20,000 nt of DNA from Atractiella rhizophila (lineage: Eukaryota): the NCBI GenBank assembly GCA_021432655.1, contig MU271444.1:44635-64634 (forward strand). Direction: 5' to 3'. Positions 86 through 19,408 of the stretch are shown here, in pieces. The translations under genes and the position numbers were made by a program. Every line of letters starts with the position of its first letter. Position 1 is the first letter of the stretch. Below the pieces are notes generated by a model. That model worked only from the letters and a program-made list of their open reading frames with translations, had not been told where the DNA came from and made no database searches.

Positions 86-3028
86 TCAACGGATCCAAAA
101 GCTATGAACGAACCCGACGAAGCACACAATCGCGACGAGGAAGAAGCCTAGAGCGTAATTGAAGGGGTAATTTCGGGCATCAGGTCCATCTGCAATGGAA
201 TACGACCAAATCGCGCCGCCAATAAGAGGTCCCAAGAAGCGAGCAGCTGCAAAAGTATGTCAGCAATTTGATGAAAGGTAAACGACAAGGATACCTGATA
301 CTACGCTCTGAGCGGTACCGTTTGCCAAAGAGACGAGAGGTGCTGGCGTCATCGCGTTGACGAGAATCATGATGGCGGTATATGAGCAGACACTGGCTAA
401 ACTTCGGATGACTGGTAGCCCTCGTGAGTATCCGGTTGATAGCAGGTAAGGCATATATACCCATGAGCAGGAGCATTCCAAACATTACAAATCCATTTGT
501 ATTTTGGTGGAGCAGTCCTCGAAGTTCTGGGAAGAGGAGGTAGACTGGAATGTAGAGCAGCAGTCCGAAACGGAACATGAAGAGGTGAGAGAAGTGGCCT
601 CTTGGCGGTCCGACGTTGGGGTACTGTTAAACACATCTTTAGAGTGGAACAGTGTGGACGAGTGTTAAATCTCACGAAGCGGAATTGAAACAGCATTTGG
701 AAGAAGCATAACTGTTTAGCCAGTCAAAAATACGCCATCGTGAACAGAATGGAACTCACGAGTGCGATGAGTGTGGCGTAATCCGAAGCTCTCAGGCCCA
801 ATCCACCGCTCGCAACAGGGGTTACCAAAAACGACCTGTTTTGCACCAGTTCACTTTCCCCCACATAGGATGAACAGAATTACGGACATGAAGACTTGGT
901 CGCAAGTGGTTCCATGAAGAGCCACAACGGCATACTGGACGATGAGAGTGACAGGGAGTAACTTCCACACACTTTCCTGCATTCCATCCCCAGGAATAGT
1001 TTCCGCGGGAGGGACAGTCGTCTCTCCTCCGGTCAGCTGAATCACATCTTCCTCCTGCTCCTCCTCTTCCGCCCCAACATTCACCGGCGTCTTCGTCAGA
1101 CCAGTGTTATGAAAGATCGCACGAACGGATGAGGTAGAGCTGGACCTCCTGAGAGAAAGAGGAGCCAGAGTCCGTCCCACCCCTCTGCCTCTGTCCAATT
1201 CTCCATGGTCAGGCTCTTTAAGCTTTTGGCTCGGCTGGAAAAGCGCAGAAGGACGCGTATCAGGGAGGGGGAATAGGAGGTCTTCTGGGGTATCTGCGGT
1301 GGAGATAGCGGCTTGGATGCCGAGACCTATCGTCGGACGAGTTTGTTGAATGTCCTTCCACGGTCGCGCGTCTTCTTCTGAAACTTCCCTTGGACCAACT
1401 TGGTACCTGGAGCGGGAGTAGAGGGCTTGCTTGCGAGTGGCGTTTCGGACATCCGTTTCATTATGGGTTGCAGCATCGACCCATAGATCGGAGATGGAGA
1501 AAATATTGTTATCGTTGGACATGAGCAATCTTCCATTTGCATCAGCCTTCATGATTCTGAAGGAAAATCAGACGAGAACTTACCGCTTCGCAAAGCCTCC
1601 ACTAGTGCTAGTCCTCGACCTCAAACTAGAACCACTAGCTGAACTTCTCCTCCGCCCCGTCCCTCTTCCCTGAGTCGGATAACCGTACCTCCTATCATCC
1701 TCACTCGAACTCTCCTTCCCCTTCCCCTTTCCTGGAATAACAAAGCTGATCTTCCTCGTCGGCTTCGTCACGATCGGAACCTTTGAGCTCCCTTGCCGGT
1801 CATCATCGCTGTCGTCCGGCGAGCTAGCAGAGGATACCCCAATGGTCTTCTCCTCCCCCTCTAACCTGATACCGCCTTCTTTGACCCCTCCGTCCCATCC
1901 AAGGAAGATGGAGAGGAGGCAACCCGTCCCGGTGACACAAGCGGCTATGAGACATGGGAGGAGGTATGGATGCACAACGAAGATTTCGAGTTTTGGAGAG
2001 CTGAAGAGAGAAGGCAATTTGAGAGCTGGATGTTCTGTCAGGCCACCAATGATTGGGCCAACCTGTGGCATTCATGGAGCTCGTCAGTACAGCCCGCAAT
2101 GAGGATGTCATTCTTCCACATCCTGAGATGCGCCGCTCTACGCAGACGCAGTCCATCCATACTGAGAACAGAAGGTAGACTCACGATTCCGCCCATTCCC
2201 CAACAGAACCCCACAAGAGCATAAGCCCTCTGCTCATTTGTCGTGTCCGTAACGTCCTTCACAACTCCGCGCGCAACGCCAACGGCACCATTGAATAGAC
2301 CTTGGGCGAATCTAATGAGCAAGAGCTGTGGCAAGCTTGTAGCAGTTCCTTCATTCCAAAACCAAAAGACCTCAATGTCCAACCTTTACTACAGGAAAAG
2401 CAAAAGCAGACGTACCAAACAGCAGCAACGAGATGGTATTACCCGCCAAACTGCTCATCAACACCACCCTCCTGCCGTGTTTTCTCCCAATAGAAGCCCA
2501 TAGCAGACTGGTCAGGAATTGAGAGAGGAAGAAAGTCGAAGCGACGATTCCGGCCCATAGTCCGACTTTAGATTCGAGACCTTCTTCAGCTTCCCCAGAC
2601 TCTCGGAAGAAGCCCTCGATCATGAAGAAGAGGAAAGGACCGGCGACAGAAGCGGACAGAAATTCGCCAATCATTATGATGCAGAGCACCGTCATAGGTA
2701 CAACGGGCAAAGGCGTGATGGACTCGCCATCCTTCGAGACCTTGCTCTGACGATACCGCGGCAGAGGCAGCTTGGGGATCGAGGGCCGATACGGTTTTGA
2801 GGAATAAGAGAAAGCGGGCTCTTCGAACGTGTTCATCTCCACTGGCAGCAGGGGATCATTGTCCACAGTCGACGGCCGTGGGACGCTGGACATCCGCGGT
2901 GGGAAGCGAACGAAGGAGGCAAGGCGGTCGAGTAGCGTGGCCTTCTTCCTGCGCTTGAAGGAGGTCGGTGGCGCAGGTGGCCGCGGTGGCATCGTCAGGG
3001 GAGCTGGGGAAAGTGCTCGAGCTAACAT
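86..3028 (-). CDS. Major facilitator superfamily transporter (ZIF1/YCR023C-like), 9 exons, ~816 aa, with a very long central cytoplasmic loop
   Basis: Spliced model: 3028-2416, 2348-2185, 2062-1584, 1529-888, 835-760, 711-676, 623-461, 411-295, 246-86. All introns are GT-AG, the frame is continuous, and it ends in TGA at 88-86. MFS motif A-like 'WASIGRKHGRRVVL', plus 'RFAQGLFNGAVGVARGVVKDVTDTTN' and 'SLANGTAQSVVSAARFLGPLIGGAIW', with multiple hydrophobic helices. Confidence 0.9.
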
Positions 3029-3263
3029 GTTGGTCGTCGAAAGTGAAGCTGAATTCGCTAACAAAGAATACGCAGCCCCATTGATCGACTTTCTGGCTAC
3101 TGCGTAATTTAATGTCTTGTACAATACTTAATGCACCAGAATTCCGGAATCATTCTCGAGAAGCACCATAACTAGCCACTTCATCAGATTTGCATCCTTT
3201 CATTAAGGCAGTCGCCTGACAGGCTGTCGTAAACCTTTTTTTTATCGATCGCGTTGGTTGAGG

Positions 3264-5058
3264 ATGGCGTCCTTTCTTCCTTATCACGAACCAAGCATAC
3301 GAACAATCCTCATAAATGGGAGCTTTCTTCTGACCCTCAACTGGATCAATTATATCCTGGATTCCACAGTCTACTGTGGCTTAATCGGGCAAATATTCAT
3401 CGGGGTCGCCTGGGGAACACCAGCAGGTAAATGGCTCACAGAAGAAGCGGAACATACCATTGTTCAGTTGGGATATTTGGGCTTGATCCTTCTCGTTTAC
3501 GAAGGTAACAATTCTATCTGCCATTGAAAGTCTGTAGCAGCTGACACTCAAGATGATTAAACTGAAAGGTGGCCTTTCGACGTCTTTTTCAGCTCTCAAA
3601 GCGAACTTGTTACTGTCTACAAGCGTGGCCCTGACGGGCATACTCATGCCCATCGCTCTCTCCTTCCTCCTCGTCCCCATCGCAAAAGCGACCCATCTTC
3701 AAGCCTTTGCCGCCGGAGCAGCTCTCTGTTCAACCAGTTTGGGGACCACCTTCACCGTTCTATCGACTAGCGGACTAACCAACTCCCGTCTCGGAGTGGT
3801 GTTGACGAGCGCAGCCATGATGGATGACGTTGTTGGGCTGGTGATGGTGCAGGTCATTTCGAATCTCGGGAACTCCTCTTCGTCAGGTCGAGATGCTTTG
3901 GAAGCCACAGACGTGATTCGACCTATCGCGGTGTCGATCGGTTTTGCCGTGCTCATACCGTTAGCCTGCAGGTGGATCGTGAAGCCTTTGACAGAGTTCT
4001 TGAATCGAAAGAGAATGGAGAGGAGAGATGGTTTTGCCAATCGTATACTCAGGTTGGAACACACTCCGCTGATTCTGCACCTTCTTATTCTCCTCGCTTT
4101 TGTTGCTGCTGGATCTTACGCTGGGACGTCGAATCTCTTCACGGCTTATATCGCTGGAGCATGCATTGGTTGGTGGGATACAGAAGTTGGCCATTGCACC
4201 ACGTCTCCTCCTAGCTCCCAATCCACGATCGAGAACGAACCCGGAGCTCAAGCAATCAAAACCAGTAACAAAAGCGACCAGCTCGAGGATCGCAGCAAAA
4301 GGACGGGGCAAGCAATCTACTCTATATATCTCTCCCATGCGGTGGACCGGATTCTCAAACCCTTTTTCTTCGCGTCCATAGGATTTTCCATTCCTATTTC
4401 CCGCATGTTCGACGGCCCAGTCATCTGGCGAGGTATCGTCTATAGCATTCTCATGGCCTTCGCAAAGATCGTCTGTGGACTATGGCTTGTCAGGATGTCC
4501 ATGCCACCAGCAATTCCTAGAATCCTGAGAAGACTAAATGGTGCTCTTCCAAAGATTTCTCACGATTGGTGGCCGTGGAAGAAGAACAGTAACACGGCGA
4601 AATCTCGATCTAAACCTCTTAAACCGCCCGCCTCTCCCTCTCTCGCCATCACAAGGAAGAAGCGCAAAAGTGACGACTCTCCTAAACAACCTACCCAAGC
4701 AGAATCGTCGCCGGAAGTGGAAGTCTCTCCTCGTCCGAATGATCACACCTCTCCAGATCCTCCGAAACCTCTTTCGTTGTACCCAGCAGGAATTCTAGGG
4801 TGTGCAATGGTCGCAAGAGGCGAAATAGGTTTCCTCATTTCCTCCCTCGCCGACAGCAGAGCCATCTTCTCAAATAGTGAAGGCGGAGATGGGGAGAGCG
4901 ACCAAATTTTTCTCATCATTATTTGGGCTATTATGGTCTGCACGATCGTTGGTCCACTCAGTGTTGGACTTTTGGTGAAGAGAGTGAAAAGGTTGGATAG
5001 TGGACATCAAAATGGTGGTGGCGCGAATGGACCACTTGGAGTTTGGGGTGTCAAGTAA
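3264..5058 (+). CDS. Cation/H+ antiporter (Na+/H+ exchanger family, CPA2-like), 2 exons, ~576 aa
   Basis: Exons 3264-3504 and 3569-5058. Intron gtaaca...gctgac...aag restores 'LILLVYEGGLST'. CPA motifs 'GAALCSTSLG', 'SAAMMDDVVGLVM', 'PFFFASIGFSIP' and 'AMVARGEIGFLI'; many transmembrane segments. Confidence 0.92.
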
Positions 5059-7009
5059 AAGATCTAGAGTTGACACCACTCTCTCTTTCTGTACATATTT
5101 GACTGCATAATGATCATTTCCAAAATCGATCTGTGGAGCGCTCATCCTCATGCTGTTAGGAACCTCGAAGCGGAATGACTGATATGACACAAATGACTGG
5201 TCTTGTCCCACAATTAGAGCCACGAATACAGTTCTTTGGCCATAAAAGGGGGAGTCTCTGAAGAAGCAGGGCCAGCGAATTATCAAGCCAGCTTTGAACG
5301 CCTAAAATGACTCAAGACTCGAGCGAGAAGAAATCCTCGTCCCCATCGCAAAAGCGACCCATCTTCAAGCCTTTGCCGCCGGAGCAGCTCTCTGTTCAAC
5401 CAGTTTGGGGACCACCTTCACCGTTCTAACGACGAGCGGACTAACCAACTCCCGTCTCGGAGTGGTGTTGACGAGCGCAGCCATGATGGATGACGTTGTT
5501 GGGCTGGTGATGGTCCAGGTCATTTCGAATCTCGGGAGCTCCTCTTCCTCTTCGTCAGGTCGAGATGCCTTGGAAACCACAGATGTGATTCGACCTATCG
5601 TGGTGTCGATCGGTTTTGCCGTGCTCGTCCCTCTGGCCTGTCGGTGGATCGTGAAGCCTTTGACAGAGTTCTTGAATCGAGAGAGAATGGAGAGGAGAGA
5701 TGGTTTTGCCAACCGTATCCTCTGCTTGGAACACACTCCGCTGATTCTGCACCTTCTTATTCTCCTCGCTTTTGTTGCTGCTGGATCTTACGCTGGGACG
5801 TCGAATCTCTTCACGGCTTATATCGCCGGAGCATGTATCAGTTGGTGGGATACAGAAGTTGGCCATTGCACCACGTCTCCTCCTAGCTCCCAATCCACGA
5901 TCGAGAACGAACCCGGAGCTCAAGCAATCAAAACCAGTAACAAAAGCGACCAACTTGAGGATCGCAGCAAAAGGACGGGGCAAGCAATCTACTCTATATA
6001 TCTCTCCCATGCGGTGGACCGAATTCTCAAACCCTTTTTCTTCGCGTCCATTGGATTCTCTATTCCTATTTCCCGCATGTTCGACGGCCCAGTCATCTGG
6101 AGAGGTATCGTCTATAGCATTCTCATGGGCTTCGCAAAGATCGTCTGTGGACTATGGCTTGTCAGGACGTCGATGCCTTCAGTCATTCCCAGGATCATGA
6201 GAAGACTAAAAGGTGCTCTTCCAAAGATTACTCACGATTGGTGGCCGTGGAAGAAGGATAACAACAAGTCGAAATCTCGATCTAAACCTTTTAAACCGCC
6301 CGCCTCTCCCTCTCTCGTCGTCACAAGGAAGAAGAGTAAAATTGACGCCTCTCCTAGACAACCTACCCAAGCAGCAAAGTCGCCAGATGTCGAAGTCTCT
6401 CCTCGTCCAAACGATCACACCTCTCCAGATCCTCCGAAACCTCTTTCGCTGTACCCAGCAGGAATTTTAGGATGTGCAATGGTCGCAAGAGGCGAGATAG
6501 GTTTCCTCATTTCCTCCCTCGCCGACAGCAGAGGCATCTTCTCGAATAGTGACGGCGGAGATGGGGAGAGCGACCAAATTTTTCTCATCATTACTTGGGC
6601 TATTATGGTCTGCACGATCGTTGGTCCACTCAGCGTTGGACTTTTGGTGAAGAGAGTGAAACGGTTGGATGGTGGACATCAAAATGGTGGTGGTGGCGTG
6701 AATGGACCACTTGGAGTTTGGGGTGTCAAGTAAAAGATCTAGAGTTGACACCACTCTCTCTTTCTGTACATATTTTGACTGCATAATGATCATTTCCAAA
6801 ATCGATCTGTGGAGCGCTCATCCTCATGCTGTTAGGAACCTCGAAGCGGAATGACTGATATGACACAAATGACTGTTCTTGTCCCACAATTAGAGCCACG
6901 AATGCAGTTCTTTGGCCATAAAAGAGGGAGTCTCTGAAGAAGCAGGGCCAGCGAATTATCAAGCCAGCTTTGAACGCCTAAAATGACTCAAGATTCGAGC
7001 GAGAAGAAA
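3668..7009 (+). repeat. Direct tandem duplication: unit 1 = 3668-5333 (1666 bp), unit 2 = 5334-7009 (1676 bp)
   Basis: Both units begin tcctcgtccccatcgcaaaagcg and end ...cgagcgagaagaaa. They are colinear throughout, with scattered SNPs, two in-frame coding indels (+6, +3) and one 1-nt non-coding indel. Confidence 0.97.
5334..6733 (+). pseudogene. 5'-truncated second copy of the cation/H+ antiporter (lacks the first ~113 codons and exon 1); reading frame still open to TAA at 6733
   Basis: Protein nearly identical to the C-terminal ~460 aa of the 3264-5058 gene. No native start. The duplicated GFA ATG at 5307 is out of frame and stops at TAA 5427-5429. The first in-frame ATG is at 5483. Confidence 0.75.
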
Positions 7010-11402: not shown

Positions 11403-12405
11403 CCACCTTCAGAACTTTAACATGGCAATTGACTTGAGTGCTGAAAATGAGTCCGGGAACAGGGAAAAAGGAGACGTCTGATGAAAATGCATTGATTATT
11501 ATAAAAGGTAGCAGTAAATATCGAGTAAGTAAGCAAGACATCAATGCACGAAAACTAGAAGGATCCACTGTATTTGAAAATCGAACATCTGTGGGCAAGT
11601 GAGGGATTGCATCAACAGCTGCATTGAGGGGAAACACCACAAATCGTCCATTTGGCACAAGAGGATCCAACTTCACTTCCACTGTTCAGCAGAAAGACGA
11701 AAAAAATCACACACATTTCGGGAAGTTCAACGACGAGACGTGGAAATACTAAAAGTGAACGAGGGTATTTTGCTTTTGAGGAAGTCAGAATATTGGAGAA
11801 GAGGGAAGATAAAGAGTGGAATCGATAAGTAAAAGGGTGGTGTCGTGGAGGGTGTGGTATATTAACGTGGGGGTTTATGATTATAAGTGTTTTGGAAGGT
11901 AAGAAAAGCGAAGCTCCATCCTGACAAACTAGAAACAAGCGATTGTTGCTCTGCTGCAAAGACTAGCCAGATGAGAAGCGAGTGAAGAAAAGAGGAGAGA
12001 GAAAGAACGTGGTAGTTTCCTTCTACTGAAGTTTGAGGGAGGAGGGGTAATGAAGGCACATATTGCGGCAGGTTGGTTTTGATGAAAACGAATAGTACGA
12101 AAGAAGACAAGCAGTCGATGGATGAGAGCGGAGGAAAGTCATCCCAACCGAACGAGCAGAAATTATGACCCAAAATCGTAAAGGTATCTCAAGTAAGGAC
12201 GACTTCCTGTGATTTATTTGTTTTGGATATTTTGAAGAGTGTGTGTATTCACGTCGTCGACATGCTGACGGTTAGACTGAAAACAACTGACGAATTTGTC
12301 TCTGCTGCTGCAAGCAAGCGTCTAAGAACTGAAGGCGGTGAGAAACGAACTCTGAATCGAGCACCGAGCGGTAAAAATCGAATCGAGTCAGTGACAAGCT
12401 TCAAA

Positions 12406-14115
12406 CTAATACATTGGCCCAAACGTGAGACCCGGAGGAATTTGAATCGGTGGTTCAGTCGTCGAAGGAAGAGCACTGAGGAGGTCCGCGCTCGTATCTG
12501 TCAATGGATCGAAGCCAAATAGTGATAGACTTTCAGGCCAGCCATCCGTAATCGTCAAGGAGAGCCCAAGAGAGGCGGCAGCGTTAGCATCTTTTGAAAG
12601 GTTTACTGGACGTAGTCCTCCATCCGGATGATCAAAGGAGATTTCAGAAGAGGAGCGAGTGTGATCCGTGTGGTCGGTGTCTCCCTCTTCAGTATCGTTA
12701 CCTTCCGACTGTATCCCATGAAATCATCAACAAAATTCTGCAGAGGAGGAAAGGAGAACAAACAGTGAAATCGAGAGAATCCTGTTCACCCGAGCGCAAA
12801 TGTGCCCGTTTATGCCTGTACACGGCAGACCGTAAGCAATACTCAGTCAAAGGACAGAAGGGACAAACCTCATAGCGTCCATCTGCAGCTTGCACAACCT
12901 CTTCAAAGGGTCGTTCTCCAGACTCGTCCTCAATTTACACGTCGCCAAATGCGCTCTGATGACAGCCGGACGTTTGGCTTTCGATCTAAACCGACAATTG
13001 GGTAGGCAAGACTGGTGTTTCAGCCATGCATTCGAGTTGCCTGTGGATGGGAACAGTTCGTGATCTTGCTCGAACACGCGGGTATAAGACCTTGGTGGGA
13101 ACTACCAAACATAATCTTCACTACTCTATCAAGCGGCGAGGGAAGTGCTTACGGTGATGGTGTCATTGTGCGGCCGTCCGACGGCCGCTCTCCCTCGTTC
13201 AGAATTGGCGGGATAGAGCTGCGAATCTTGTCTATCCCAAACATAATTTTCCTCTCCCTCGTTCATCAAACTGAAACCTCCGGGGGTGGTGACGCCAGAC
13301 GACGTCCCATTCGCCCCAGTCGTAAACTGAAGGCTGGTAGGTCTCCGTTGTCCAATCAATTCGTCACCCGAGTCCAGCGACGTGAGACTACTCCGATCTC
13401 CGGCCATATACGGCGTATGATGTTCCGTCGTCCTACCGCGTTTCATCGTGTGGCCATTCGTCCGTGAGAGAACGCCTGTGGGCGGAAGGAAAGATTGGGA
13501 GGTTGATTGAGGAGAGAAAAAGTTCGGAAGGCCGTTCGATGCATCTGGAGGACTGGGAATGAACGATGACTGCGGAGAAGTGGAGGCATAGGATGAAGAA
13601 GCGGTCCCATTGGCAGTGGGGTAGATCGTGGATCCGTACGTAGATTGAGAGGAAGAAACCTGCATTCCATTCGAAGAATACGGTGCTGGGGGTCCTTCCC
13701 ATCCAACATATAGTCACTCCGCCCATTCTTCTCTGCACAAAAATGACGCAAGAAACTCACCGTTCTGCATCCCTGCCGTGAACCCCAGCTCCGGAATGGC
13801 CAAGTTATTCTGCTGCAACGCTTTATTCAACACGTCCCACGTCAAATACAACGTTCCAGGTGCCAACGCGGTGAGATAAAGCCCGAGAGTGCCGTTGAAG
13901 CGAACCTGTGCTGGCACGACTTCATAAGTCGGGAAATTGGAAAACTGCTGCATCTGGTGATGGGGATTCGAGCCGAACTGCTGTTGCGAGGGAGGGTGGG
14001 CATGATTTTGAGCGTGGGGAGGGAGAGACGGGAGGGGCTGTTGAGGGGGCGGCTGGAGGGGAGGAGGAAGGGTAGCGGTTGAAGTCGAAGCTTGCCAACT
14101 TGGAGGACCCTCCAT
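12406..14115 (-). CDS. Unknown gene A: putative C2HC zinc-finger nuclear protein, 5 exons, ~494 aa; paralog of gene B
   Basis: Exons 14115-13761, 13694-13153 (alternative in-frame acceptor at 13685), 13101-12869, 12815-12764, 12708-12406, all GT-AG and in frame. Pro/Gln-rich N-terminus, Ser-rich linker, 'CLPNC...KRPAVIRAHLATC...LKRLCKLQMDAMRHKRAHLR', acidic C-terminal tail. The exact start and last exon are less certain. Confidence 0.72.
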
Positions 14116-14130
14116 CCCATCGACGAGCAG

Positions 14131-14160
14131 AGTGCGAGTGCGGGTGCGGGTGCGAGTGCG
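14131..14160. repeat. Hexamer tandem repeat (RGTGCG)x5 just upstream of the gene A start
   Basis: agtgcg agtgcg ggtgcg ggtgcg agtgcg. Confidence 0.85.
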
Positions 14161-14738
14161 ATGTGCGATCGAATGCTCTGAACTTTTCCAGGGCACGATG
14201 GACTCGTTCGAAAAGAAGCAGGTGATCGTGTGGTCGGAGAGAGATGCCGCGGTCTGTCGTTCCAATCGTTAGGGGAAGGAGAAGCTGGCAGTTATACGGT
14301 AGAGCCGTGGAAGTAACGATGGGGCTAGTCCAGACGTCCGCGTTAGCGATGGCGCAAACAGGGCTGGTCGTTGGATCGTTGGAGGTGGTCGTTGTGTTTG
14401 GAGTTGGAGTTCGTTGAAGAAGCTGGCTCTCGGCTTTTGCTCCTCGTGTCGAGCGTGGCAGTCATCAATTCAAATCAGAGTCAATGTTCCATCTGCCGAT
14501 TCTTAATTCTAACCCTAATAGCCATACTTCTCTCGGACAGCCGTCCAACACCAGAGTTCCTCCTGTCAAGGTTGTGGCTTCTTATTGGCGCTCTTATCCA
14601 GTCTTATCCACGTTCAACAGTCAACAAGGAGCAAGAAGAAGCAATGGGAAGGCATGAAGATATGGTGTAGGATTGCATTGCTGGCATACAAAGAATAGAG
14701 GGATGGCGGCATAAACAGTCGAAGTGTACGAAGAGTAT

Positions 14739-15562
14739 CTAAGCCTTGTTCGAAATGATACCGTCGAACTGTCACAAGATTCAGCATCTCACCCCATGAC
14801 TTGCTGAGGAAGAAAGACTCACTCGCTGTTTGAACCAAGCTTGAGAATCCTCCTTCTTCACCCTGTGGGAAGATCCAACTCGAGACTTGCACCTCTTTCG
14901 CCTCGCTACTCGGGCACCAGGACGTCCCATGCAGACATAGAAGTCCATTCCGAAGATACTATTCACATCCCACATCTTCACTCTCCGCCTTGACAACATC
15001 CAGAGCAAGTGCTTACCCAATAGCAGGATCATACTTGATGCCCAAATCGATATGCTCCTGAATGCCAAACCCAAAATTTCCAGTCTCGCTAAAGTTCCTC
15101 CTCTTCAACTCGTACTCCTTCACCTTCAAAGCCCTCTCCAAAATCTCCTCCGCTTTCGGTCCACGGATGGTGACGTGAACCGCAATCTTTTCGTTACGAC
15201 GGATACCGAACGATCGAATCGTGTATCGCGCCTTGGAAGTGACGGGGGATTGACCGGTGAGTTGTTCCAACACCTTGGATGCTCGTGTTAGACGATCTCC
15301 AGACTCGCCAACCGAAATGTCTGTCATTGAAGAGAACATGGATTAGAATGAGGGAGATGCAGACGAAAATGCAGGAGACGGACTGATGACGAGCTTCTCG
15401 ATGCGGAGCTCCCTCTGTCAATATCAGAATCGTCAGTTGTTGTCCTTATGTGTGAGGAGGAACGCTCACGTTAGGATTGACGGATTTCTTTTCGTCAGCC
15501 TATCCCAATCCATCCACCATCACTCCCATGCACCTCTGGGAGCATAAAAAGGGACGAACCAT
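14739..15562 (-). CDS. RPL11: 60S ribosomal protein L11 (uL5), 6 exons, ~177 aa
   Basis: Exons 15562-15560 (ATG only), 15499-15470, 15414-15384, 15320-15017, 14958-14823, 14768-14739. Unmistakable '[24 protein letters not shown]...[34 protein letters not shown]...[16 protein letters not shown]'. Confidence 0.98.
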
Positions 15563-15765
15563 TGTATGAGTCCACCTTTCCCTTCCTTACCTCAAGTCTG
15601 TCGTTTGGCGTGTCAAGTGGAAAATACGCGAGCCTCGTCTTAGGGTTGTCAGGTTACAAGTTAGGGTTCAGCGGGCGGATCTCACCCGCACTTTATTCGC
15701 CACCTATTCTTCATTCTCCAAACGGACTTTTTTGGGAGCTCGTTTCAAGCAGCAGGCGCACCAAA
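15563..15765. promoter_or_regulatory. Compact bidirectional promoter region between RPL11 and SmB, containing two TTAGGGTT (telo-box/Tbf1-type) motifs at 15640-15647 and 15661-15668
   Basis: The two ATGs are divergent and only 203 bp apart. The motifs are read directly; their function is inferred. Confidence 0.65.
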
Positions 15766-16549
15766 ATGGTGAGTCTCTTTCATCGGTAGCGCGTACGGGA
15801 GCTGAGGAGAGGGATAGTCTACGAAAAAAGGGGGGAAATTGATGGGCCTCATCCATTATCGCGTTCGCGTGACGCTGAACGACTCTCGGACGCTGATTGG
15901 ACAGCTGCTCGCCTTCGACAAGCACATGAACTTGGTGTTGGCGGAGTGTGAAGACTTTAGGACGATCAAGATGAAGAAGAAGAAGGATGCGGGAGGTGCT
16001 GGCGTCGGTGGAATGGGGGAGAAGATGGTGGTCGATGGAGAGGAGGGCAGTAATAGGTTGCAGGAGATTAAGAGGTCGTTGGGATTGACGATCCTTAGAG
16101 GAGAGACTATCGTTTCTATCTCTGTGGAAAGCCCTCCGCCTGTAGTTGACGAGAGCAAGCAGCCGAATGTTCGTCCTCTCTTTCTTCTCTAAAGGGTGTC
16201 ATCTCATTCTCCATTCTTCTTTGTAATTAGATCCTTCCTGGACCTGGCGTTGGTCGTGCGGTAGGACGTGGAGTGGGGCTAGCACCACCACGTACGTCTC
16301 CTCTCTCTGTCATGGTATTTTAGCGGGAATGATGCGCGGTGGTCCGATGCCATTCCCCCCTCGTCCTCCAGGCGCACCAGGCCTTCCTCCGCCCCCACCT
16401 GGGATGTTACCAGGCATGATGCCTCCTCCTGGGTTCTCTGGACCACCACCTGGGTTTGTTCATCCCTTACCATCTTTCCTTTCTTTGCTTGTCTGTGTGA
16501 GAAGGCTGATGCTTGTTGAGATAGGTTCATGCCTCCACCGCCGCGATAA
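15766..16549 (+). CDS. SMB1: Small nuclear ribonucleoprotein-associated protein B (SmB), 5 exons, ~189 aa
   Basis: Exons 15766-15768 (ATG only), 15818-16168, 16231-16291, 16324-16453, 16525-16549. Sm1 'YRVRVTLNDSRTLIGQLLAFDKHMNLVLAECEDFR', Sm2 'KRSLGLTILRGETIVSISVESPPP', and a GRG/PPPGM-rich tail. Confidence 0.95.
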
Positions 16550-16744
16550 TCGAGGATCGTTTTAAGCGTGGCATTGCAAGATGGTTGGATGATAGGATGA
16601 GAAGACGATATCGATTGGTGAGGAAGGTGAAAGGGCTGAAAAGTCAAAAGTGATACATGTTACGTCGTTTCTTTGCATCCAATCTGTTGTTCTCTTTCCA
16701 CTCTGCTCCACGCTTCCTCGCTTCCATGCACCACACTCTTCATT

Positions 16745-17361
16745 CTACGAAATCCGATCCTCGCTCTCCAGCTTTTTAGCCCTACTCTCAGCAATCAATC
16801 CCACCTCCCTCACCGCTCGCTCCACCTCTCCCTTCCACCTCTCGCTCTCAACCTCAAACCTCTCCTTCCCTTTCCCCTCCTCCCTCAACTCAGCTTCCCA
16901 CTCCTTGATCCTAGATTCGAGTTCGGAAGCGATGGCAGAACGAGAGCGCGAATTGACAAAGGTGATGTACCGTAACCCGGGAAAGAGATCCTCGTATCTG
17001 GCATTCAAGACCTGCCATCTTCCCTTCAGTTTTACATCAAACTAAATTAGACATGAATATGGACCTTCAATGTCTCCACCACTTCGGGAGGACATGCTTC
17101 ACCGCCTTCTCCGCGCGTTTGCTCCCCTTTCGACGCCGCACTTAGATGTTGGACGGGAGCTCCGATGCGTGGATGGGAGTGGAGGAAGGAGGCGCGGAGG
17201 GGGAGAGGCCAGGATTGGATGATGGTGATGGAGGTGGGGACGAGGGTTGTGGGTTTGTATGTTGTGTTGGGTGGGAGGGAGGGGATGAGGTGGGTGCTGA
17301 GGAGGGGGTGGTTTTCGAAGAGCAGGGGGAGGAGGATGGCTGGGTTGGTTGGGTAGGACAT
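16745..17361 (-). CDS. OHCU decarboxylase (2-oxo-4-hydroxy-4-carboxy-5-ureidoimidazoline decarboxylase)-like protein, 2 exons, ~187 aa
   Basis: Exons 17361-17065 and 17011-16745. Motifs 'LLFE', 'HPRIG', 'SKGEQ', 'LNARYEDLFPGLRYITFVNSRSR' and 'IAESR' match the fungal OHCU decarboxylase family. Confidence 0.88.
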
Positions 17362-17560
17362 GGTTGTACTTGTGCTACCTTGTGGACTTATGTTATTGCA
17401 ATATCTATTCCACAAGCTAAGATGCACTTGTTACTGAGCATCCATATTTCAGGCCAGCTAGCTGATTGATGGATTGCTGGAGAAGGGGTCAGGTCATCAA
17501 CAGACATCAAGAGAAGGACCAACGTCAGCAACAAGGCCAACAACGAACGTTGAGTCTGCG

Positions 17561-19340
17561 ATGTCCATCTCTCGCCCTCCCTCCGCTTCAACGCCGTACG
17601 TCCACCGCACCCTCCTCCAGCCTCAGCCACAGCCGAGCGAGGACGACCAGCACCACGACGACGTCTCCGTCTCAGGCGACGGCATACACCTCGGAGCGAA
17701 CGTCCTCAAGTGGGACCAGCTCGCTGAGGTCCTCGTGTCTCAGTCGACCGCTGGTCTTTTGCCGAGTGGACATGTCCTCGGATTGGCTGTCGCTTGCTTA
17801 CGTGCGTCTACTCTTATTATTTTTCTGTGTTCTATGGATTGGGATTGAATGGATCCTTGGATGTAGATACGGCAAATGCATGGGCTAATGGAAGTCCTCC
17901 CGAACACGCATCTTCTTCAGCTCTTCAACCCACCACCTCTCATCGTCGATTACATCCCATCCCCACACGTATAACTCAACCCTCTCCACCCACCTCCCTA
18001 CCCGCCACACCCTCAGGACCACCAGGACCAGCCACAACAACAACGACAACACACACAGCACCACCAACCCACCCACCCTCCGTTCCCTACGGCGTCAAAT
18101 CCGAAGGCTCAGCCTCCGACCTCCACTGCACCCTCTCCACCGACACCCTCGTCATCTACTGGGACCACCGCCTGCTCCGACCCGTGAACTCGCCGAGCGC
18201 GATAGTGTATCCGAGCGGGGCGACGGCGGCCGAAGAGGAGTTTGAGAGGATCGAGTTTGGCCCGAGGAGTCATTGGAAGGTCGTCAGAGCCGGAATCGAG
18301 GTCTGGCCGTGGGATGGGATTGGGCCGGGTAACGATTGGCTGCGTGGTCAGGTGTGTCTTTTCTCTCCTCTCCCTTTTTCTTTTTTTTTGAATAAAAGAT
18401 CGACGATTGTTGATGGATTGGTGATGTAGCTCGTCAATTCGCCAGAGTGTAGATGTGGAGTGTTCCACTTCAGACACTCTAATTCGGGTTTCAAGAGACC
18501 AGCGGTCATACGAGAGCATCTCGCCTCTTGTTCGACGATGGAAGCCGTACCGGAAGGTTTGAGGCGACTCTGCGTGTTGCAGAGGGATGCCGAGAAGATG
18601 GGAACGAAGAGGAAGAGGGAGGAAGCGAGGAAAGAAGGCGATATGGGGAAATTGGTTCGTCCTCCCCACCTCACTTCATATCCCTTTCGTCGACGTTGAT
18701 TTTGGATTTTTGGATGTGGCATGGCGAATAGAAGAGAGCCAGATACGTGCCCAATCATTCGGCTTCGAGGACAGGATTGGAGATGGTCGAAGGAGGGAGG
18801 TCAGACTCGAACGGCGTCGGTGGAGGGATCGAATCCGGACCTACCTCTCTCGCTTCTGGATCAGGATCTACAGCTATGACAGCAGGAGGAGGAGGAGGGA
18901 GATCAAACTTCTCAGCCGGCCTCTCCTCTCTCGCGATGGGAGCAACGATGGACCTCGACCCCGACACGGATGGACGGGACATACCCATCGAAGTCGAGCC
19001 TGACTCGCCAGACGGAAACACCCCTACTACCGGCGGCGGTCTGCGCGCACGTGGAAGTGGAAGCGGTGGTGGAGGAGGAGGGACGAGGGAGATGGAAGAG
19101 CTGAGGGGGAGGAATATCGATGAGGATGTGCTTGATCCGGAAGTCGTTGGGCGGGCGGTCAGGAATTCTAATTCCACTGGAACTCCCGCGTCGGGACATC
19201 GCAATGGGGGTACAGGTGGGAATGGGAATGGTACGGTGGGGACGAGTGAGGAGAGAGAGAGGATGGGGGAGGGGAAGTGGAGGGATGGTGATAGAATCGA
19301 CATGTTTGTCAGGCGGGAACATCAGGATTTCGATTCATGA
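17561..19340 (+). CDS. Unknown gene B: putative C2HC zinc-finger nuclear protein, 4 exons, ~519 aa; paralog of gene A
   Basis: Exons 17561-17801, 17867-18351, 18430-18654, 18732-19340, all GT-AG and in frame. Pro/Thr-rich linker, 'CRC...KRPAVIREHLASC...LRRLCVLQRDAEKMGTKRKR...LKRAR', and a Gly/Ser/acidic tail. Confidence 0.75.
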
Positions 19341-19408
19341 TTTCGGTGAATTCTGTCAGAATAAATGCTGAATCAATGTACTATGAATTCTTCAGTGGAA
19401 AACATGTG

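Follow-up and report, generated by a model that had tools for sequence, protein, structure and literature searches.

The window analysed here is a stretch of 20,000 nucleotides of the genome of the root fungus Atractiella rhizophila, a Pucciniomycotina basidiomycete (assembly GCA_021432655.1, contig MU271444.1, positions 44,635 to 64,634 of the forward strand; positions below are counted from its first letter). It contains two genes, A and B, which lie in divergent orientation with their starts 3.4 kb apart. Both genes are expressed and spliced, and by comparison of their protein sequences they are distant paralogs that share a domain of about 115-125 residues without a named family. The models and searches described below point to a fungal domain family that has not been described before, probably with a C2HC zinc site, whose predicted fold has found no match. 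The explanation that we favour, and hold with reasonable if not high confidence, is that genes A and B are expressed paralogs of an unnamed fungal family and encode zinc-stabilised nuclear regulators in which a C2HC finger is set in a new fold.

The relationship of the two genes is seen directly when the spliced proteins are compared. A single pairwise comparison gives 40 identical residues out of 95 (42%) with an E value of 2e-13, in agreement with the distant paralogy proposed in the initial annotation, and the exons that encode the Cys/His region align on their own with an E value of 6e-10. A short segment of the domain, KRPAVIRAHLATC in one protein and KRPAVIREHLASC in the other, is identical at 11 of 13 positions. 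The regions of the N-terminal motif give a weak colinear BLAST alignment (E 1.2). The positions of the introns inside the conserved domain differ between the genes. Outside the domain, low-complexity linkers and acidic or Gly-rich tails occur in both proteins, the tail of gene B being Gly-rich and acidic, and in each a basic patch (RHKRAHLR in gene A) comes after the domain, as the initial annotation had described; the peptide strings that it quoted were all found in the window where it had placed them. The basic stretch of gene B, KMGTKRKREEARKEGDMGKLKRARY, looks like a nuclear localisation signal (NLS), judging from its bipartite pattern.

The Cys/His residues follow the pattern C-x3-C-x14-H-x3-C-x14-C in gene A and C-x-C-x20-H-x3-C-x13-C in gene B. 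The initial annotation had recognised a Cys pair followed by H-x3-C. Both elements are indeed conserved, yet the pair takes the form Cx3C in gene A and CxC in gene B, and a fifth cysteine, which belongs to the RLC motif, had been missed.

The models of both genes were assembled from six-frame open reading frames together with the sequence, and all of their introns are 51-78 bases long with GT..AG ends. Contigs from four public RNA runs (X24, X1, X2 and X4) were placed on 12300-19400. Run X24, whose contigs are about 98% like the window, behaves as a transcriptome, with at least 15 splice-like joints listed and a poly-T loose end at the 3′ end of RPL11, one of the genes that lie between A and B. 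Within one X24 contig of 1873 bases, all four introns of gene A appear as GT..AG joints; two of them were found again in X1 and one in X4. In gene B, the intron at 17802-17866 is spliced in X24 and X4, and that at 18352-18429 in X24, X1 and X2. The predicted splice junctions are thus supported by RNA for gene A as a whole and for introns 1 and 2 of gene B, while intron 3 of gene B (18655-18731) is absent from the joints listed and is read from the annotated protein P0002 only, in which GDMGKL runs directly into KRARY. P0002 further implies an optional intron within exon 4 of gene B.

These data also correct the public annotation, which splits gene B and gives a gene A without its true N-terminus. 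According to the RNA joints, gene B is one spliced gene; its annotated pieces are P0024 (267 residues), which comprises the N-terminal half and then reads through intron 2 to a stop, and P0002 (209 residues), which begins at an internal methionine. The annotated form of gene A, P0001 (336 residues), has a different start (MECRFLPLNL...) and an extra intron, and its last three junctions are identical to those of our model. An RNA contig that is colinear over 13153-13693 and spliced to 13761-13993 conflicts with the N-terminus of P0001; the true gene A protein is therefore about 158 residues longer at this end.

Two side observations concern the public data for this locus. P0002, which comes from another contig than P0001, shows two residue differences (T to A) relative to the window in the area of 19215-19250, and the X24 transcripts depart from the window by about 2%; a second haplotype or strain of the locus seems to be present in the public data. 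Over 18462-19400 the summed depth of X24 contigs reaches up to 585,000, as compared to about 185 over gene A. This part of the window is purine-rich and rich in Gly codons, and the high depth is probably due to cross-matching of low-complexity contigs.

The family was delineated with HMMER, by searching a profile exhaustively against 1.84 billion protein representatives clustered at 50% identity. The search returned 66 proteins at E<=1e-3, of which 40 reached E<=1e-10 and one E<=1e-30. The 66 matches comprise 62 other family clusters, two annotation pieces of the window itself (P0001 and P0024) and two spurious entries, P0063 and P0066. The latter, repeat proteins of bacteria, match the profile in its low-complexity part only and were rejected as members. 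A word-indexed protein search retrieved P0001 only with the gene A exon and P0002 only with the gene B exon, and none of 7220 candidates scored when the 29-row domain alignment was used in such a search.

A hidden Markov model (HMM) of the domain was built, and the 62 clusters were aligned with genes A and B (64 rows). The model scores 138.0 bits on gene A (HMM positions 3-118), whose annotated form P0001 was among the rows used to build it, and 76.4 bits on gene B (HMM positions 2-116), which was not among them. All five positions C, C, H, C and C are present in both genes. Conservation of these residues in homologs had been set in advance as a test of the domain model, and they are kept in 92-98% of the 59-64 rows: C in 61/64, C in 63/64, H in 61/63, C in 59/62 and C in 57/59. 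A glutamine (64/64) and a proline (62/63) are conserved to the same degree or more. The columns shared by at least 80% of the rows read W...F-P...P...N-x-W...Q-x-C-x3-C-x-F...K-R-P-x3-R-x-H-x3-C...R...D-P-L-x2-L-C-x-L, with conservation reaching from about 65 residues before the first cysteine to about 20 after the last.

Two subtypes can be distinguished by the spacing of the Cys/His residues. After 15 fragmentary rows had been dropped, 49 rows remained, each filling at least 80% of the domain columns. The spacing is Cx3C-x14/15-H-x3-C in 35 of them, including gene A, and CxC-x17..24-H-x3-C in 10, including gene B; two rows have Cx2C, and two lack H-x3-C, probably as truncated models. A quick maximum-likelihood tree, with support from the Shimodaira-Hasegawa-like approximate likelihood ratio test (SH-aLRT) only, puts gene B inside a clade of nine CxC rows (SH-aLRT 92), beside P0046, to which it is 44% identical. 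Gene A falls on the opposite side, among 33 rows of which 31 are Cx3C; its closest relative there shows 50% identity. Support for the basal split is modest (82). On this tree, A and B are one member each of two old branches, both of which are found elsewhere. The initial annotation took the two genes for a lineage-restricted pair. Since the domain occurs in 62 other clusters and A and B belong to two old subfamilies, that view does not hold.

The subfamilies also differ in the build of the whole protein. Cx3C members are mostly long proteins of 500-760 residues. The long ones share an N-terminal motif, G-F-x-V...W-x-V-x-W-x-x-L-x-x-L-L, and the long homologs P0003-P0023 end in a near-fixed S-F-L-S-M-D-E(E/D), with W-L-x-x-Y-G-L shortly before. 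Gene A does not have this terminal S-F-L-S-M-D-E and ends in ...GLTFGPMY. Full-length CxC members have 356-466 residues, with a basic tail and the domain near the C-terminus. An HMM of the N-terminal motif, made from 14 long homologs, gives gene B 15.2 bits, as compared to 8.6 bits for the best of 1000 shuffled controls.

Searches against known families were negative. No Pfam family matches the domain in eight window pieces of A and B at E<=1, and none was found in 18 true homologs (20 proteins scanned) at E<=0.01. When 29 domain members were scanned at E<=1, Pfam returned just seven rows, all unrelated and each confined to a single member, with a best E value of 0.053 and all far under their cut-offs; the only finger-like one is zf-CCCH_RBM22, in one of the 29 members, with 13 bits against a cut-off of 53. 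A profile search of PDB sequences gave no match at E<=10. The initial annotation could not assign the shared region of about 100 residues to a named family, and neither Pfam nor the PDB sequences supply one. In the literature searched, the motif strings KRPSVIR, KRPAVIR, KRPATIR and FLSMDE led to no relevant paper, the single hit being an unrelated preprint on a nematode neuropeptide.

AlphaFold2 models were made with the family alignment. For P0001, the predicted local distance difference test (pLDDT) is 92-98 per 10-residue block over residues 101-230, and for P0032, a relative of the gene B type, the mean is 84.3 with core blocks at 90-98. The two models agree in how their elements follow one another: several short strands with a short helix come first, then a Cys knuckle, a helix with H-x3-C at its end, and a long helix, the whole conserved stretch being predicted as one compact unit. 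In Foldseek, none of 350,542 PDB chains reached E<=0.001 (best E 1.7 for P0001 and 0.7 for P0032). Similarly, VIA-align found nothing at Z>=5 among 48,161 representative chains; its best values were Z 3.3 for P0001 (root-mean-square deviation 4.2, 47 aligned residues) and Z 2.7 for P0032 (3.6, 76 aligned), both lower than the Z of 7-8 that, according to the tool, is usual for models without a match. The searches recovered no known fold for the predicted models, which does not by itself prove the fold to be new. In the ESM Atlas the best feature scores were 0.85 and 0.82 and the structural template modelling score was at most 0.39; these entries are leads only, and hints of zf-BED and Rua1_C from the same source were not borne out by Pfam.

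One may ask whether the region is simply a divergent copy of a named finger (BED, UBZ4/Rad18-type or C2H2) with unconserved flanks. The arrangement C-x3-C-x14-H-x3-C, in which the second cysteine is followed two positions later by an aromatic residue, does resemble the classical pattern, and the ESM Atlas clusters are partly annotated as zf-BED (10% of members), at scores of 0.82-0.85 that lie below the level of more than a lead. However, the flanks are conserved far beyond both ends of the Cys/His set, the models predict the entire stretch as a single unit, and no BED, UBZ or C2H2 match appeared in any of the Pfam scans described above. We regard this origin as improbable. The many short representatives of 89-240 residues could in principle be fragments of dispersed copies. 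This would be expected if the domain came from a repetitive or selfish element, such as a Cys cluster associated with a transposase, and the pair in the window were incidental. The evidence makes such a source very improbable: the 18 true homologs contain no transposase or other Pfam domain, full-length proteins share ordered N- and C-terminal motifs, both window genes have ordinary spliced transcripts, and near-identical copies were not found, the closest relatives being those given above.

We propose how the domain may work. It would begin as a small beta-sheet region with the motifs W-D, F-P-P-G-x-Y, E-x-x-P and N-x-W-L-x-x-Q. The Cys knuckle would come next, then the helix that carries K-R-P-x-V-I-R-x-H-x3-C, and a long helix starting with D-P-L-x-R-L-C would close the domain. 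A single zinc ion would be held by the two knuckle cysteines and H-x3-C, which would make up a C2HC form of the classical beta-beta-alpha finger, embedded in a larger fold that has no solved counterpart. K-R-P-x-V-I-R-x-H is near-invariant across both subfamilies, and this face of the finger would therefore bind one common ligand, either nucleic acid or a partner protein. The disordered flanks may carry regulatory or activation functions. The NLS-like basic stretches and the long disordered flanks make a nuclear regulator or adaptor, stabilised by zinc, the most likely role. The binding of zinc, the nuclear location, the regulatory role and the ligand are all inferred.

Several points weigh against this proposal. 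CxC is unusual as a zinc knuckle, and the fifth conserved cysteine leaves the set of zinc ligands ambiguous. The near-invariant K-R-P-x-V-I-R surface fits a common partner better than sequence-specific reading of DNA. The Pfam zinc-finger models gave no match at E<=1 in the eight window pieces or, apart from the zf-CCCH_RBM22 row, in the 29 members, and the fold searches of the PDB recovered no zinc finger. The HMM of the N-terminal motif does not score above the 1000 shuffled controls on gene A.

The possible identity of the gene B branch deserves separate attention. Clp1 (clampless) proteins, which are not known from outside the basidiomycetes, are weakly conserved nuclear developmental regulators of about 350-450 residues and have been described as lacking known motifs or recognised domains. 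Clp1 acts downstream of the homeodomain (HD) mating-type heterodimer via protein-protein contacts, which in Ustilago maydis involve bW, Rbf1 and Cib1. As a tentative possibility, gene B and the CxC subfamily would be the basidiomycete Clp1 developmental regulators and the Cx3C proteins an unstudied sister family; the domain would in that case form the core of Clp1, so far unrecognised. The size of full-length CxC members and the position of their domain near the C-terminus suit this assignment, and the fact that no Pfam model covers the family fits a protein without known domains. Two papers (PMC6490947 and PMC13652807) describe Clp1 as a regulatory protein that binds Cib1. These arguments are all indirect. 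The CxC subfamily was set beside Clp1 by size and description only, which counts against the assignment, as does the absence of the family's motif strings from the literature searched. The hsg-like promoter motif GATGN9ACA was also of no help: the window contains 2 matches, which is at chance level (3.2 expected), and neither of them lies in the promoter of A or B. The Clp1 assignment is compatible with the zinc-stabilised regulator proposed above, to which it would add an identity. If CxC proteins are Clp1, the domain would explain how a regulator central to dikaryotic development and to the pathogenicity of smuts is built, and would show which residues to mutate.

A further step would be to see in the domain a fungal-specific zinc-binding fold without a solved counterpart that serves two branches of developmental regulators, CxC being Clp1 and Cx3C an unstudied sister regulator. 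Such a scheme is rather doubtful at present. If true, it would offer a first structural and biochemical handle on Clp1, together with a candidate partner or antagonist. In general, this is a family of at least 62 clusters for which Pfam offers no model, the PDB no solved relative and the literature searched no trace of the motifs. Its compact fold is nevertheless predicted with confidence and its Cys/His set is almost invariant, which makes it a good candidate for a domain entry of its own and for structural study.

The arrangement of the two genes invites another explanation, namely an obligate heterodimer of A and B whose genes stay linked and divergent for this purpose, by analogy with HD1/HD2 pairs. 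Both genes are expressed, the paralogs lie about 3.4 kb apart and diverge, and the models of both types end in a long helix that could pair. However, three unrelated, expressed housekeeping genes lie between A and B; as the initial annotation had stated and Pfam matches confirm, these are RPL11, SmB and OHCU decarboxylase. The two genes therefore have no shared promoter. Moreover, the two subfamilies are old, and each is present in other organisms. Six metagenome loci represent two distinct genes of the Cx3C type with one domain copy per contig, and RPL11, SmB and OHCU decarboxylase are missing from all six, although this is a weak test with flanks of 2-10 kb only. The idea that the linkage to RPL11 and SmB is conserved thus found no backing in the contigs of these two relatives, within the same limits. 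Another metagenome scan gave 32 pattern matches, none of which was confirmed. A complex prediction paired the gene A domain with that of gene B, the latter given as the two halves encoded by its exons. It scored 0.00, with family alignments unused and the partner's own fold uncertain, and this value carries no weight for or against binding. We consider an obligate heterodimer unlikely, and the interpretation of A and B as zinc-stabilised regulators from two old branches is retained.

The coordinates of the features are collected in Table 1.

Table 1. Genes A and B, the elements of their proteins and the genes between them (window positions)
Feature	Position	Strand	Remarks
Gene A	14115-13761, 13694-13153, 13101-12869, 12815-12764, 12708-12406	-	5 exons including stop codon; 494 residues; Cx3C subtype
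Gene A conserved domain, residues 266-379	12809..13254	-	hmmsearch envelope; spans introns 13152-13102 and 12868-12816
Gene A Cys/His set: C331 (13008-13006), C335 (12996-12994), H350 (12951-12949), C354 (12939-12937), C369 (12894-12892)	12892..13008	-	
Gene B	17561-17801, 17867-18351, 18430-18654, 18732-19340	+	4 exons including stop codon; 519 residues; CxC subtype
Gene B N-terminal motif, about residues 50-81, LKWDQLAEVLV...	17708..17882	+	common to long family members; spans intron 17802-17866
Gene B conserved domain, residues 173-298	18142..18597	+	hmmsearch envelope; spans intron 18352-18429
Gene B Cys/His set: C249 (18448-18450), C251 (18454-18456), H272 (18517-18519), C276 (18529-18531), C290 (18571-18573)	18448..18573	+	
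Gene B basic stretch after the domain, KMGTKRKREEARKEGDMGKLKRARY	18598..18750	+	bipartite-NLS-like; spans intron 18655-18731
Intervening housekeeping genes RPL11, SmB, OHCU decarboxylase	14614..17430	mixed	Pfam and spliced RNA contigs
RPL11	15013-15342	-	Pfam PF00281/PF00673 (L5 family)
SmB	15818-16192	+	Pfam PF01423 (LSM)
OHCU decarboxylase	16745-17430	-	Pfam PF09349

Upstream of the coding region of OHCU decarboxylase there is an intron on the minus strand at 17477-17523, which reads CT..AC on the plus strand; it sits in the same assembled contig as the first exon of gene B; the 5′ ends of the divergent OHCU decarboxylase and gene B transcripts appear to overlap. Elsewhere in the window, two adjacent long open reading frames on the plus strand, at 3538-5058 and 5306-6733, both match the Na+/H+ exchanger family (E 2e-24 and 2e-19, respectively) and look like tandem paralogs. 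An open reading frame on the minus strand (2372-3127) has a weak match to the Major Facilitator Superfamily, with 23.3 bits, below the Pfam cut-off.

The pair can be compared with three known systems. Like the HD1/HD2 mating-type pairs, A and B are two regulator-like genes in divergent orientation; unlike them, they are paralogs of each other, are separated by three housekeeping genes and have no homeodomain, Pfam having found none in any exon piece of either gene. With Clp1 of Coprinopsis cinerea, Ustilago maydis and Cryptococcus neoformans, the CxC subfamily shares the size range, going by the description of Clp1 given above, whereas gene B itself is longer at 519 residues and has a Gly-rich acidic tail. 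The likeness to the beta-beta-alpha fingers of the C2H2, BED and UBZ4/Rad18 types extends to a Cys knuckle followed by a helix with H-x3-C, an aromatic residue two positions after the second cysteine, a hydrophobic one before the histidine, and predicted short strands and a helix at the right places. In contrast to the classical fingers, the spacer has 14-24 residues instead of 12, one subfamily uses CxC, and the finger would form part of a domain of about 120 residues, with some 65 conserved residues upstream and a long helix and a fifth cysteine downstream.

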